64,000 bases of DNA, from NCBI GenBank assembly GCA_963724325.1, contig CAVRUH010000001.1:896001-960000 (forward strand), given 5' to 3'. The notes below the pieces were generated by a model. It did not search any database. It was given only the letters and a program-made list of their open reading frames with translations, and had not been told where the DNA came from. This document shows positions 60,598-64,000 of this stretch, one piece after another. The position numbers were made by a program, and so were the translations under genes. The DNA comes from Waddliaceae bacterium (GTDB taxonomy: Bacteria > Chlamydiota > Chlamydiia > Chlamydiales > Waddliaceae). Position 1 is the stretch's first letter. Each line of letters opens with the position of its first letter.

Positions 60598-60644
60598 TTG
60601 TGGTCAGCTCATAGAGATGTGGCCTGCTCTCTCCGAGAGCAGGC

Positions 60645-62131
60645 CTCAAGTTTGGCGGTTTCTCATATTTTTGAGAAAAAACTTTCAAAAAAAAGAGAAG
60701 ACACATAATATTTTTGTTTTTCACGCAAATGAGGACAAAAAAATATGTGCCTTCTCGAAACTTTTCTATCACTAGTCTCCCTATGGAGACCAGCATTTTG
60801 TAAACAAGACACCTTTAGAAGAGTCAAAGATCACGCTGTCGCGACTGTTTGCTCCTTGGGACGCCATACGATCACAAATCTTATCATTTGGCTTGGAAAA
60901 GATCAATTAGATCCTACAGCCGATTATAGATTATACAATGAATATAAGTGGAATGTCGAGGATCTTTTTAACCCTTTATTGGAAAAGGCAATGCCGTTTT
61001 TTGGAGATGATTATGTTGTTGTTGGAGCAGACGACACTCGTATTCGCAAAAGAGGAAAGAAGATCCCTGGAACATCTTGGGGAAGGGATCCATTATCACC
61101 CCCATTTCAAGTTAATTTAATGTGGGGGCAAAGATTTTCTTCAATTTTCATTTCTACTTCCTATGTACAATCATTCATCAGTCAGTGCACGAGCATTGCC
61201 TATAAGATTTATTCATACTCCTCCTTTAACAAAACCTGGTAAAAGAGCAAATGCAGCAGAAATATTAACATACAAGAAATTATGTAAGACTCAAAATTTA
61301 TCGACTCGGTATATAGAAGAGGTAAGAAAATTGAGGGAGCATTTAGATGCAATAGGGTGTACAAAAAAACAACTTATGGTCACTGACGGTAGTTTCTGTA
61401 ATAGAATTTGCATGAATTTAAACATGCCAGGAGTTGAAGCACTAGCACGCGCCAGAAAGAATTCAAAACTATGTTATCGGGCTGAAGGCAATGGTAGACG
61501 CACATATGGGGTTAATAAATTCACTCCAGAGCAAGTACGTCAAGATGATAGTATACCATGGCAGTCTGCAATTTTCTTTTATGGTGGTGAATGGAGAAGA
61601 ATAAGATTTAAAGTATTGCGAGATGTATTATGGCAATCTGGCACAAAGACTAGACCGATGAGATTATTAGTCGTAGCACCGTTGCCTTATGTGAAAAATG
61701 GGATTAGAAATTACCGCCAACCCGCCTATCTATTAACAACTGATCTCGAGGCCACAGCAGAATTCCTTCTTCAGAGTTATTTAGACAGATGGCAGATAGA
61801 AGTAAACTTCAGAGAGGAAAAATCTGTATTGGGTGTTGGAGAGGCCCAAGTATGGAGTGAAAAGTCAGCTGAAAGACAGCCATCATTTAGGGTTGCAGTA
61901 TATAGTGCCTTATTATTGTCTAGCATTCTGAAATACAAGGATGTGCCACCAATTGATGAAGAGATTCCGAAATGGAGAGACAAGCCACAAAGAAATACCT
62001 GTAGAGCATTAATAGGGATGATTAGAAGTGAAACTCTAGAAAATATAGAAAGTATAATAGATTTAGAATTAACTAGGCCGATGTTATCGGCAATTTTTCG
62101 AAAAGCAGCCTAAAAAACCGCCAAACTTGAG
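60645..62131 (+). mobile_element. Insertion sequence copy 2 (1487 bp)
   Basis: Same TIRs as copy 1; 23-bp direct repeat GCCTGCTCTCTCCGAGAGCAGGC at 60622-60644 and 62132-62154. Confidence 0.97.
60745..62113 (+). pseudogene. Transposase with a +1 T frameshift at 61135-61138
   Basis: aagattttctt here versus aagatttctt in copies 1 and 3. Confidence 0.85.
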
Positions 62132-62156
62132 GCCTGCTCTCTCCGAGAGCAGGCGA

Positions 62157-62313
62157 CTGTGGTCAGCTCTCTCGGAGAGCTGACGCCTGCTCTCTGAGAG
62201 AGCAGGGCACTGTGGTCAGCTCTCTCGGAGAGCTGACGCCTGCTCTCTGAGAGAGCAGGGCACTGTGGTCAGCTCTCTCGGAGAGCTGACGCCTGCTCTC
62301 TGAGAGAGCAGGG
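62157..62313. repeat. Family E REP-doublet array (3 x 53 bp)
   Basis: ctgtggtcagctctctcggagagctgacgcctgctctctgagagagcagggca at 62157, 62210 and 62263. Confidence 0.93.
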
Positions 62314-63799
62314 CTCAAGTTTGGCGGTTTTTTAGGCTGCTTTTCGAAAAATTGCCGATAACATCGGCCTAGTTAATTCTAAATCTATTATACTTTCTAT
62401 ATTTTCTAGAGTTTCACTTCTAATCATCCCTATTAATGCTCTACAGGTATTTCTTTGTGGCTTGTCTCTCCATTTCGGAATCTCTTCATCAATTGGTGGC
62501 ACATCCTTGTATTTCAGAATGCTAGACAATAATAAGGCACTATATACTGCAACCCTAAATGATGGCTGTCTTTCAGCTGACTTTTCACTCCATACTTGGG
62601 CCTCTCCAACACCCAATACAGATTTTTCCTCTCTGAAGTTTACTTCTATCTGCCATCTGTCTAAATAACTCTGAAGAAGGAATTCTGCTGTGGCCTCGAG
62701 ATCAGTTGTTAATAGATAGGCGGGTTGGCGGTAATTTCTAATCCCATTTTTCACATAAGGCAACGGTGCTACGACTAATAATCTCATCGGTCTAGTCTTT
62801 GTGCCAGATTGCCATAATACATCTCGCAATACTTTAAATCTTATTCTTCTCCATTCACCACCATAAAAGAAAATTGCAGACTGCCATGGTATACTATCAT
62901 CTTGACGTACTTGCTCTGGAGTGAATTTATTAACCCCATATGTGCGTCTACCATTGCCTTCAGCCCGATAACATAGTTTTGAATTCTTTCTGGCGCGTGC
63001 TAGTGCTTCAACTCCTGGCATGTTTAAATTCATGCAAATTCTATTACAGAAACTACCGTCAGTGACCATAAGTTGTTTTTTTGTACACCCTATTGCATCT
63101 AAATGCTCCCTCAATTTTCTTACCTCTTCTATATACCGAGTCGATAAATTTTGAGTCTTACATAATTTCTTGTATGTTAATATTTCTGCTGCATTTGCTC
63201 TTTTACCAGGTTTTGTTAAAGGAGGAGTATGAATAAATCTTATAGGCAATGCTCGTGCACTGACTGATGAATGATTGTACATAGGAAGTAGAAATGAAAA
63301 TTGAAGAAATCTTTGCCCCCACATTAAATTAACTTGAAATGGGGGTGATAATGGATCCCTTCCCCAAGATGTTCCAGGGATCTTCTTTCCTCTTTTGCGA
63401 ATACGAGTGTCGTCTGCTCCAACAACAACATAATCATCTCCAAAAAACGGCATTGCCTTTTCCAATAAAGGGTTAAAAAGATCCTCGACATTCCACTTAT
63501 ATTCATTGTATAATCTATAATCGGCTGTAGGATCTAATTGATCTTTTCCAAGCCAAATGATAAGATTTGTGATCGTATGGCGTCCCAAGGAGCAAACAGT
63601 CGCGACAGCGTGATCTTTGACTCTTCTAAAGGTGTCTTGTTTACAAAATGCTGGTCTCCATAGGGAGACTAGTGATAGAAAAGTTTCGAGAAGGCACATA
63701 TTTTTTTGTCCTCATTTGCGTGAAAAACAAAAATATTATGTGTCTTCTCTTTTTTTTGAAAGTTTTTTCTCAAAAATATGAGAAACCGCCAAACTTGAG
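62314..63799 (-). mobile_element. Insertion sequence copy 3 (1486 bp)
   Basis: Same TIRs; flanks 62291-62313 and 63800-63822 match at 22 of 23 positions. Confidence 0.97.
62332..63699 (-). CDS. DDE transposase (same protein as copy 1)
   Basis: 455 aa, YREK motif. Confidence 0.95.
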   Translation of the reverse strand: MCLLETFLSLVSLWRPAFCKQDTFRRVKDHAVATVCSLGRHTITNLIIWLGKDQLDPTADYRLYNEYKWNVEDLFNPLLEKAMPFFGDDYVVVGADDTRIRKRGKKIPGTSWGRDPLSPPFQVNLMWGQRFLQFSFLLPMYNHSSVSARALPIRFIHTPPLTKPGKRANAAEILTYKKLCKTQNLSTRYIEEVRKLREHLDAIGCTKKQLMVTDGSFCNRICMNLNMPGVEALARARKNSKLCYRAEGNGRRTYGVNKFTPEQVRQDDSIPWQSAIFFYGGEWRRIRFKVLRDVLWQSGTKTRPMRLLVVAPLPYVKNGIRNYRQPAYLLTTDLEATAEFLLQSYLDRWQIEVNFREEKSVLGVGEAQVWSEKSAERQPSFRVAVYSALLLSSILKYKDVPPIDEEIPKWRDKPQRNTCRALIGMIRSETLENIESIIDLELTRPMLSAIFRKAA

Positions 63800-63824
63800 G
63801 CCTGCTCTCTGAGAGAGCAGGCCA

Positions 63825-64000
63825 CTCAAGTTTGGCGGTTTTTTAGGCTGCTTTTCGAAAAATTGCCGATAACATCGGCCTAGTTAATTCTAAATCTATT
63901 ATACTTTCTATATTTTCTAGAGTTTCACTTCTAATCATCCCTATTAATGCTCTACAGGTATTTCTTTGTGGCTTGTCTCTCCATTTCGGAATCTCTTCAT
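63825..64000 (-). mobile_element. Insertion sequence copy 4 (right end only, cut by window edge)
   Basis: CTCAAGTTTGGCGGTTT at 63825 followed by the transposase 3' end. Confidence 0.93.

Follow-up and report, generated by a model that had tools for sequence, protein, structure and literature searches.

Behind atpC, the last gene of the atp operon in a Waddliaceae bacterium, three copies of one insertion sequence (IS) lie in a single array of REP-like hairpins. How does an element come to insert repeatedly in such an array, and does each insertion provide the target for the next? The window analysed here is a stretch of 64,000 nucleotides; positions beyond it are given on contig C1. As predicted from the letters of the window, copies 2 (+), 3 (-) and 4 (-) are stacked in one family E array, which begins directly after the atpC stop codon (Table 1). 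The coordinates confirm that copies 2 and 3 form an inverted repeat about a 182-bp spacer (62132-62313) and that copies 3 and 4 are separated by 25 bp (63800-63824), a 23-bp hairpin plus CA. The native array between copies 2 and 3 has a period of 53 bp, and its A hairpins, whose stem foot carries a G-G mismatch, have no insertions. In copy 2 one extra T (61135-61138), which falls within a homopolymer, breaks the transposase into frames of 165 and 316 aa. Copy 4 extends 1310 bp beyond the end of the window and is followed by the distal hairpin, a T-run and a convergent 375-aa ORF.

Table 1. Features of the IS stack and its surroundings (window positions unless marked C1).
Feature	Position	Strand	Basis
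atpC (ATP synthase epsilon, 82 aa), end of atp operon	60349..60597	+	Pfam PF02823, E 8.5e-26; ORF list
Degenerate unit, first of family E REP-like array	60598..60621	.	Sequence
23-bp hairpin, left flank of copy 2 (10-bp stem, 3-nt loop)	60622..60644	.	Identical to 62132-62154
IS copy 2, 1487 bp	60645..62131	+	Sequence comparison of copies
Sigma-70-like promoter match (11/12), inside copy 2, antisense to tnp	60930..60959	-	Consensus match only
23-bp hairpin, right flank of copy 2	62132..62154	.	Duplication of 60622..60644
Native array between copies 2 and 3: three B and two A hairpins, alternating	62155..62290	.	Sequence
23-bp hairpin, left flank of copy 3 (22/23 match, last base G)	62291..62313	.	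Duplication comparison
IS copy 3, 1486 bp, perfect 17-bp TIRs (CTCAAGTTTGGCGGTTT)	62314..63799	-	Sequence
Intact transposase of copy 3, 455 aa, Tn5-like fold	62332..63699	-	Domain, motif, structure model
Promoter-like match in copy 3, antisense as in copy 2, directed into copy 4	63485..63514	+	Consensus match only
Left copy of the 27-bp duplication of copy 4	63798..63824	.	27/27 identical to C1:961311-961337
IS copy 4, complete 1486 bp (63825 to C1:961310); window part is the right end	63825..64000	-	Sequence
IS copy 1, inserted in a hairpin of family F (unrelated to E) with a 22-bp duplication	37760..39245	-	Sequence

All nine insertions of this IS in the 2.37-Mb genome duplicate a whole hairpin of 22-27 bp, centred on the hairpin axis. 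With only 629 comparable hairpins genome-wide, this is not a chance association. The expectation of an undamaged hairpin on each side of the IS thus holds in nine of nine cases, including copy 4, whose far end beyond the window repeats the hairpin in full. The duplication of copy 3 has one mismatch in 23, the last base being G on the left and C on the right. Fold-back repair accounts poorly for the mismatch in copy 3, since the direction of change does not fit. The insertions are all intergenic by a simple ORF check, in agreement with the idea that genes are spared, and both IS orientations occur within one array. Family E comprises 77 hairpins in about 20 arrays and follows the REP/BIME pattern of short extragenic palindromes in alternating orientation and dispersed arrays. 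REP/BIME arrays may also have a cognate RAYT gene with the repeat on its flanks; the single Y1 transposase detected in the genome, which is 84.6% complete in 11 contigs, matches NF047646 with 79.3 bits against a cut-off of 80 and is flanked by family F, not E. Three of the nine insertions lie in a hairpin family unrelated to E: the targets fall into two families, E and F1, that share no arm sequence. Relatives of the IS use yet other hairpins, and the target is not one REP family.

The transposase has catalytic residues Asp96, Asp214 and Glu352 and a complete YREK motif (Tyr345, Arg348, Glu352, Lys359), conserved in 84 homologues with Tyr, Glu and Lys invariant and Arg nearly so. Its structure model (pLDDT 88.6) is closest to Tn5 transposase (E 1.5e-10). 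The best NCBIfam match is NF049999 (transpos_IS701_3; E 6e-40), but the score of 137.4 bits is under the cut-off of 170, and the protein is a sister of that family; ten further proteins of the relatives are likewise below the cut-off, and nine of nine further clade members score 120-150 bits. Other IS701 models fit less well (NF033540, 41.3 bits against 150; NF049921, 17.3 against 250), and Pfam DDE_5 (PF13546) is passed narrowly (28.1 bits against 27). No IS4 model of NCBIfam is passed either (28-32 bits against cut-offs of 115-250). There were no hits to IS30 models (NCBIfam to E 1, Pfam to E 0.1) or to IS1182 models of NCBIfam. A total of 4234 of 7997 scored protein clusters reached E 1e-30 or better, and the plasmid collection gave no match.

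Published descriptions of the two nearest families each fit in part. The IS701 family is described as 1400-1550 bp long, with a 4-bp target duplication and a YREK motif mostly missing its tyrosine (PMC2266710, in part). The present IS resembles it in size, in its single DDE ORF of 455 aa, in Pfam DDE_5 and in its best match, NF049999; its length is 1486 bp and its TIRs are 17 bp. It differs in its duplications of 22-27 bp instead of 4 bp (nine of nine), its full YREK motif and its score under the cut-off. It shares with the IS4 family, above all the IS50/Tn5 and ISPepr1 subgroups, the DDE triad with complete YREK motif, the Tn5-like fold and 5'-CT ends, and its first nine bases fit the ISPepr1 end consensus. 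IS4 duplications, however, are 7-13 bp (Table 1 of PMC2266710, in part).

Relatives at 41-53% identity were found at 80 loci, 61 of which have both TIRs and flanks. Relatives in several phyla show the same hairpin-duplicating behaviour, with duplications of 13-34 bp; among the 61 loci, 29 have duplications of 19-32 bp and one of 13 bp. Hairpins at least as stable as -8 kcal/mol adjoin 101 of 122 flanks, compared with seven of 555 random flank positions. Exact centring on the axis is seen in 43 of 45 duplications. Duplication length follows hairpin length (Spearman 0.83, for rows that are not independent). Duplication minus hairpin length nevertheless ranges from -10 to +4, some cuts lying away from the stem foot. 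Besides other hairpins, the relatives target terminator-like ones. In genome G136, six copies of three related elements duplicate AT-rich hairpins of 25-34 bp, some followed by a T-run, and identical copies sit in different hairpins with duplications of 28, 32 and 25 bp.

The remaining 31 of the 61 loci lack a duplication of 13 bp or more. Three of these are composites with matching outer duplications; composites, made of one IS plus an extra end, are L013, L019 and L021. To explain the other 28, rearrangement after insertion or chimeric assembly has to be assumed. Among 39 copies on contigs of at least 50 kb, 15 have unmatched hairpin flanks (three being composites), as rearrangement between copies would give, and the predicted proneness to rearrangement agrees with this. 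A comparison for flanks swapped between copies gave one match within G001, where the left flank of L061 equals the right flank of L059 over 20 bp; the reciprocal match is absent, and G002 has none. At L049, L052 and L128 the flank pairs are loop-inverted or compensatorily changed. Two true NF049999 copies (269 bits) lie between two palindrome arms without a duplication. Of the five loci of NF049999 members over the cut-off, four have no TIR pair and L136 has no duplication.

DDE transposases normally set the duplication length by the spacing of their two active sites on linear DNA. We consider it likely that the stack arose by three separate insertions in which the transposase attacks the feet of a cruciform, and that copy 4 entered the hairpin duplicated by copy 3. 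The enzyme would act on an extruded hairpin pair, the substrate that we infer, at its two 5' feet, and gap repair would then leave a complete hairpin on either side of the IS. Judging by the Tn5 fold and the full YREK motif, the chemistry would be cut-and-paste, which in the IS4 family proceeds through a hairpin intermediate at the element ends. The bonds attacked in a four-way junction are equally far apart at any arm length, which would explain duplications anywhere between 13 and 34 bp. A stem of 8-11 bp is short for a cruciform to extrude spontaneously, and this favours a substrate in the form of a single-strand hairpin, in the lagging-strand template or a transcription bubble, or else a short staggered cut followed by fold-back repair; the flank pairs of L049, L052 and L128 resemble products of template switching. 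We nevertheless regard these routes as unlikely, given that exact centring requires symmetric cutting of both strands about the axis and that both orientations are found in one array.

The order of events can be read from the duplication of copy 4. Its 27 bp consist of AG, the final two bases of copy 3, followed by the right hairpin of copy 3 (63800-63822) and CA. This hairpin arm has 20 native contexts, none of them ending in AG. Copy 4 therefore likely entered the hairpin duplicated by copy 3, an order inferred from two bases; as a caution, single mismatches near the stem foot are found in five of 39 duplications. The suggestion that an insertion makes a new target probably holds for this one case, in which a duplicated hairpin would have served as a target again. 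As the duplication reaches 2 bp into the earlier element, the cut appears to be set by the hairpin axis and not by a fixed sequence. A tandem duplication of copy 3 as the origin of copy 4 is ruled out by the spacer of 25 instead of 23 bp, the different far junction and the allele at IS position 385. This allele is A in copies 2 and 3, to which it is private, and the common C in copy 4; the shared A suggests local hopping or conversion.

The original prediction went further and explained the stack by regeneration, each duplication raising the local insertion rate enough to yield three copies. The direct reuse by copy 4 fits such a self-feeding hot spot, as do a second stack of two copies at C1:211255/212902 and relative L080, which has a similar 18-bp right end 24 bp upstream, beyond its duplicated hairpin. 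Against it, when nine insertions are distributed at random among the 150 hairpins of E and F1, the probability of three in one array is 0.18 without regeneration and rises only to 0.24 when each insertion adds a target; for the 3+2 pattern the same model gives 0.07 and 0.13. Furthermore, seven of the nine original hairpins of the most-hit E subtype were already in the two stacked arrays. The shared 385A also speaks against regeneration as the explanation. A tblastn search of flanks of up to 1.5 kb at 11 relative loci, nine of them chosen for an extra TIR-like match, found no second full transposase. The clustering is within chance, regeneration as the cause of a hot site lacks support, and we doubt the self-feeding account. 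The stack would instead form where the best targets are most concentrated, these being perfect, GC-rich stems of 10 bp that lie between convergent genes, and regeneration would keep the site usable.

The companion proposal, that insertion preserves a terminator for the atp operon, fares no better. Insertion copies the hairpin alone, without a T-run; the distal hairpin, which alone keeps its T-run, is the sole terminator-like site of the array and is 4.7 kb from the atpC stop codon. No terminator was called at 60622-60644. In a search for an empty site, atpC was matched in seven of 30 relatives, and inspection by eye of the 330 nt that follow it showed no repeats of family E; at 39-52% identity these seven are too distant to serve as the empty allele. 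Both the hot-spot and the terminator claims now weigh less than originally held.

That the stack is an assembly artefact, by repeat expansion or mis-join, we judge very improbable. In its favour, none of the low-depth contigs of public runs bridges a junction by 31 nt, the genome is 84.6% complete in 11 contigs, and the extra T of copy 2 lies in a homopolymer. However, every junction is distinct and obeys the duplication rule, and copying a junction could not yield the 27-bp duplication. The alleles differ among copies, both 385 alleles being present in contigs of run X1. Two junction-specific pieces, the copy 3/4 spacer and the copy 4 far end, match short contigs of public runs with 0 differences, although these contigs go only 4 and 9 nt beyond the junctions and the public runs could themselves be the source samples. 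Recognition of a palindromic sequence in linear DNA, REP-specific as for ISPpu9/ISPpu10 or ISRm22, is hardly credible despite the preference for one E subtype, which has nine of the 77 E hairpins and five of the six family E insertions (a post hoc count of non-independent insertions), as the same element uses E and F1 and the identical G136 copies use differing hairpins and duplication lengths.

Whole-hairpin duplication has a precedent in IS1630, reportedly described by Calcutt, Lavrrar and Wise in 1999 (J Bacteriol 181:7597, as cited in PMC3317919). This IS30-family element of Mycoplasma fermentans duplicates whole hairpins of 19-26 bp (PMC2853133, in part), as the present IS and its relatives do. 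The present transposase differs in having no IS30 hit, a Tn5-like fold and 17-bp TIRs, and its habit extends across a large clade in several phyla, with nested reuse visible. The IS1630 habit thus arose at least twice. IS1272/TnSha1 of the IS1182 family undergoes stem-loop-replacing transposition, for which a cruciform model exists (PMC4923244, PMC5678879, both in part). It too has hairpin targets without sequence consensus and composites of one IS plus an extra end, but it deletes the hairpin, leaves no duplication and so destroys its own target. The hairpin-duplicating route corresponds to the hypothetical pathway b in Figure 13 of Wan et al. 2017 (PMC5678879, in part), of which the present IS would be a natural case.

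REP-targeting ISs include ISPsy8, IS1397, ISKpn1 (IS3), ISPa11, ISPpu9, ISPpu10, IS621 (IS110) and ISRm22 (IS4) (PMC1525189, in part). Like the present IS, they have all copies in extragenic palindromic repeats, often clustered, and show hybrid flanks after recombination between copies. In the passages of that source, insertion takes place within the REP, which is disrupted, with duplications of 0-6 bp and a conserved target sequence, whereas the present IS ends up between two complete hairpins and accepts hairpin families that are unrelated. Our literature search, with ISfinder outside its scope and an entry there possible, found no paper on whole-hairpin duplication by an IS701- or IS4-like element or on this clade; passages from PMC3196728 and PMC7648426 contain nothing on the clade.

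A Tn5-fold enzyme with hairpin-set duplications of 13-34 bp offers a simple system for testing cruciform recognition. More tentatively, this IS and its relatives may form a large and so far undescribed family in which a Tn5-fold transposase binds four-way junctions and attacks the strand pair of one diagonal, duplicating the hairpin; in the NF049999 sister group the attack would fall on the opposite diagonal or on the apex, with no duplication as the result. If true, targets would be chosen by DNA shape alone, a single protein scaffold would alternate between insertion that regenerates the target and insertion that destroys it, and the positions of the elements would mark the sites of cruciform formation in live bacteria. 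We also note that the promoter-like match in copy 2, a consensus match, is directed outward through the left end of the element, towards atpC.

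Three copies of one element lie downstream of the atpC stop at 60597, in a REP-like array of family E hairpins. The window corresponds to C1:896001-960000 of genome G000. As originally noted, copies 2 and 3 are separated by 182 bp and copies 3 and 4 by 25 bp; the stack is a real structure, and the core observation was correct.

IS copies stacked behind atpC (window positions unless a contig is named)
Feature	Position	Strand	Source	Remark
IS copy 2	60645-62131	+		
IS copy 3	62314-63799	-		
IS copy 4	from 63825 to C1:961310	-		complete; extends past window end

The element is 1486 bp long, with 17-bp perfect terminal repeats and a single 455-aa ORF. 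The genome (G000) contains eight full copies, with four variable alignment columns in total, and one remnant of 29-31 bp; all nine insertions are intergenic (ORF check, 100 aa). Copy 2 is the only frameshifted full copy (61135-61138), which could also be a homopolymer error; it is co-oriented with the atp operon and just downstream, and read-through would express it. Within the IS, an 11/12 sigma-70 match (60930-60959, minus strand, in copy 2; 63485-63514, plus strand, in copy 3) runs antisense to the 5' portion of tnp, points outwards through the left end (towards atpC in copy 2) and so resembles IS10 pOUT. At C1:211255-214387, a family E array flanked by convergent genes holds a second stack: two oppositely oriented copies with 161 bp between them, each carrying a 23-bp duplication. 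The remnant (C1:879427-879457) comes from the left end of the IS and retains a 22-bp hairpin duplication on its two sides. As a contig of sequencing run X1 joins its flank to 401 nt of IS, other cells may carry a full copy at this site; alternatively, the contig may be a chimera formed where the assembly graph passes through the 31-bp remnant.

Five of fifteen public runs were checked, all as low-depth contigs, none of which bridges a junction by the 31-nt rule. Across the terminal 4 nt of copy 3, the 25-bp spacer and into copy 4, a 228-nt contig (run X2) is identical to the assembly, and a 151-nt contig (run X3) matches the far end of copy 4 and the next 9 nt, beginning AG. These matches weakly support the assembled junctions; the runs may be the source samples themselves.

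We defined the duplication as the longest stretch shared by the end of the left flank and the start of the right flank, allowing one mismatch and not requiring symmetry. The nine insertions gave 23, 23, 22, 22, 22, 23, 23 (one mismatch), 27 and 25 bp. Each duplicated stretch forms a hairpin, with the hairpin axis at its midpoint. Family E hairpins received six of the insertions and family F1 hairpins the other three; the two families have no arm sequence in common. After in silico removal of the insertions, the genome contains 629 hairpins of at least 9 pairs (77 E, 73 F1, 117 F2, 362 other), so that nine insertions out of nine in hairpins is far beyond chance. The REP-targeting ISs described in PMC1525189 break the repeat and make duplications of 0-6 bp, and PMC2266710 (text and Table 1) gives 4 bp for IS701 elements and 7-13 bp for IS4 subgroups. 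IS1630 is a known precedent for duplication of a whole hairpin, but the transposase clade of the present element is different. This clade apparently has no name; a literature search, with ISfinder outside its scope, found no paper on it.

A genome scan returned 256 relatives. The best 80 of these (41-53% identity) come from records titled Acidobacteriota, Geobacter, Syntrophobacter, Verrucomicrobia, Bacteroidales, Gemmatimonadales, Nitrospirales and others. Leaving out 9 without a TIR pair and 10 with flanks shorter than 45 nt, we scored 61: the duplication is 19-32 bp in 29, 13 bp in one, 4 bp in one and absent in 30. Flanks match in 24/39 on contigs of at least 50 kb versus 6/22 on shorter contigs, so chimeric assembly accounts for part of the missing duplications; three of the 15 long-contig loci that lack a match prove to be composites, whose duplications do match at the outer ends. 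A hairpin of -8 kcal/mol or better abuts 101 of 122 flanks, matched or not, compared with 7 of 555 random positions. Within the window's class, 9 of 400 other genomes gave a match, and genome G136 has six copies with duplicated AT-rich hairpins of 25-34 bp. Centring on the axis is exact in 43 of 45 duplications (30 from relatives, 9 from G000, 6 from G136), and across these 45 duplication length tracks hairpin length (Spearman 0.83); as a genome can contribute several rows, the p-value overstates the evidence. A protein search scored 7997 candidates, 4234 of them at E 1e-30 or better.

Composites in one acidobacterial genome (L013:297-2897, L019:308-2897, L021:284-2897) carry a second right-end TIR, placed 728-752 bp upstream of the IS, and their outer ends are bounded by a hairpin duplication of 22-25 bp. 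They resemble TnSha1, a single-IS transposon, here with another transposase aboard: the passenger segment, 99% identical among them, encodes a 159-aa IS200/IS605-type Y1 transposase (NF033573, 56.3 vs 55). At four loci (L049, L052, L016, L038) the two flanks share one hairpin but have its loop in opposite orientations, and at L128 they are two perfect hairpins one compensatory pair apart; template switching in gap repair, or deletion between inverted repeats, may have produced them.

The transposase matches Pfam DDE_5 barely above the cut-off, and its best NCBIfam model, NF049999 (IS701_3), scores 137 bits against a cut-off of 170 (ten relatives, 120-150). D96, D214, E352, Y345 and K359 are invariant in 84 aligned sequences, and the predicted structure (pLDDT 88.6) best matches Tn5 transposase (E 1.5e-10, TM 0.55). 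DDE enzymes join the element's 3' ends to staggered bonds, and repair copies the sequence in between. A stagger of 13-34 bp that is hairpin-dependent and hairpin-centred is difficult to produce with linear DNA as the target; at a four-way junction, where a fixed distance separates the two 5' feet, it comes readily. We infer that the transposase would attack the two 5' feet of a cruciform, repair then duplicating the whole hairpin. A single-strand hairpin as substrate, or fold-back repair, is possible instead. Pathway b of Wan et al. is this cruciform route, which they drew as a hypothesis next to the hairpin deletion observed for IS1272 (PMC5678879); that deletion is described by Furi et al. 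(PMC4923244). Whereas the studied clade duplicates the hairpin, a true NF049999 element (269 bits), from the single genome G327, has the opposite outcome: its two copies (L112, L117) lie directly between palindrome arms, with no duplication and inverted flank runs of 6 and 20 bp.

The locus contributes a readable record of insertion order. The far flank of copy 4 is a 27-bp repeat (AG, 23-bp hairpin, CA), and the near-side AG of its duplication is the final two bases of copy 3. Genome-wide, this hairpin arm has 28 contexts: eight lie directly after an IS end, and not one of the remaining 20 has a final AG. As the AG belongs to copy 3, copy 3 was likely inserted before copy 4, an argument that stands on two bases. 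Copy 4 likely inserted into the hairpin duplicate to the right of copy 3, its two cuts lying symmetric to the hairpin axis and each displaced outwards by two bases. Copy 4 as a tandem duplication of copy 3 predicts a 23-bp spacer and the same junctions and alleles, which is not so; at IS position 385, copies 2 and 3 carry a private synonymous allele and copy 4 the common one (both alleles are present in run X1). The duplication of copy 3 ends in G on the left, as in two unhit upstream units, and on the right in the C of a perfect stem; this mismatch is compatible with a deletion hybrid, with a change made during repair or with an error in the consensus.

The array had also been read as a self-regenerating hot spot. 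Hairpin reuse likely did occur (copy 4), but the clustering is within chance. With nine insertions assigned at random to the 150 hairpins of families E and F1 (50 arrays), P for at least three in one array is 0.18, versus 0.24 if every insertion adds one target, leaving a self-feeding effect unsupported. The observed 3+2 pattern has P = 0.07 without and 0.13 with added targets, and six family E insertions in at most three arrays 0.06 and 0.11. One subtype received five of the six family E insertions, and the two stacked arrays contain seven of its nine original copies. Nine events are too few to separate target quality, local hopping and regeneration. IS clusters are generally common (19% of ISs in the survey of bioRxiv 10.1101/2025.07.22.666184). 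The proposal that insertion preserves termination of the atp operon is not supported: a terminator scan found no terminator-like site at the hairpin adjoining atpC, its one site being the distal hairpin, the sole one followed by a T-run and now 4.7 kb from atpC, and the duplication copies the stem-loop without the T-run tail. The hot-spot and terminator readings were overstated.

On another contig of G000 (C5), a RAYT-like Y1 transposase gene (L001:1327-1869) adjoins a long family F repeat array; the family E repeat was not found in this locus. The F-type atp operon occupies 54279-60597. Between 55426 and 55679 the ORF list contains no c-subunit ORF of at least 80 aa, a limit below which the c subunit would fall. 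The nearest named AtpD proteins, 77-79% identical, are from Protochlamydia and Parachlamydiaceae, which makes the host probably an environmental chlamydia. AtpC is short (82 aa) and consists of the beta-sandwich domain only; its relatives at L097 and L100 continue into a C-terminal extension.
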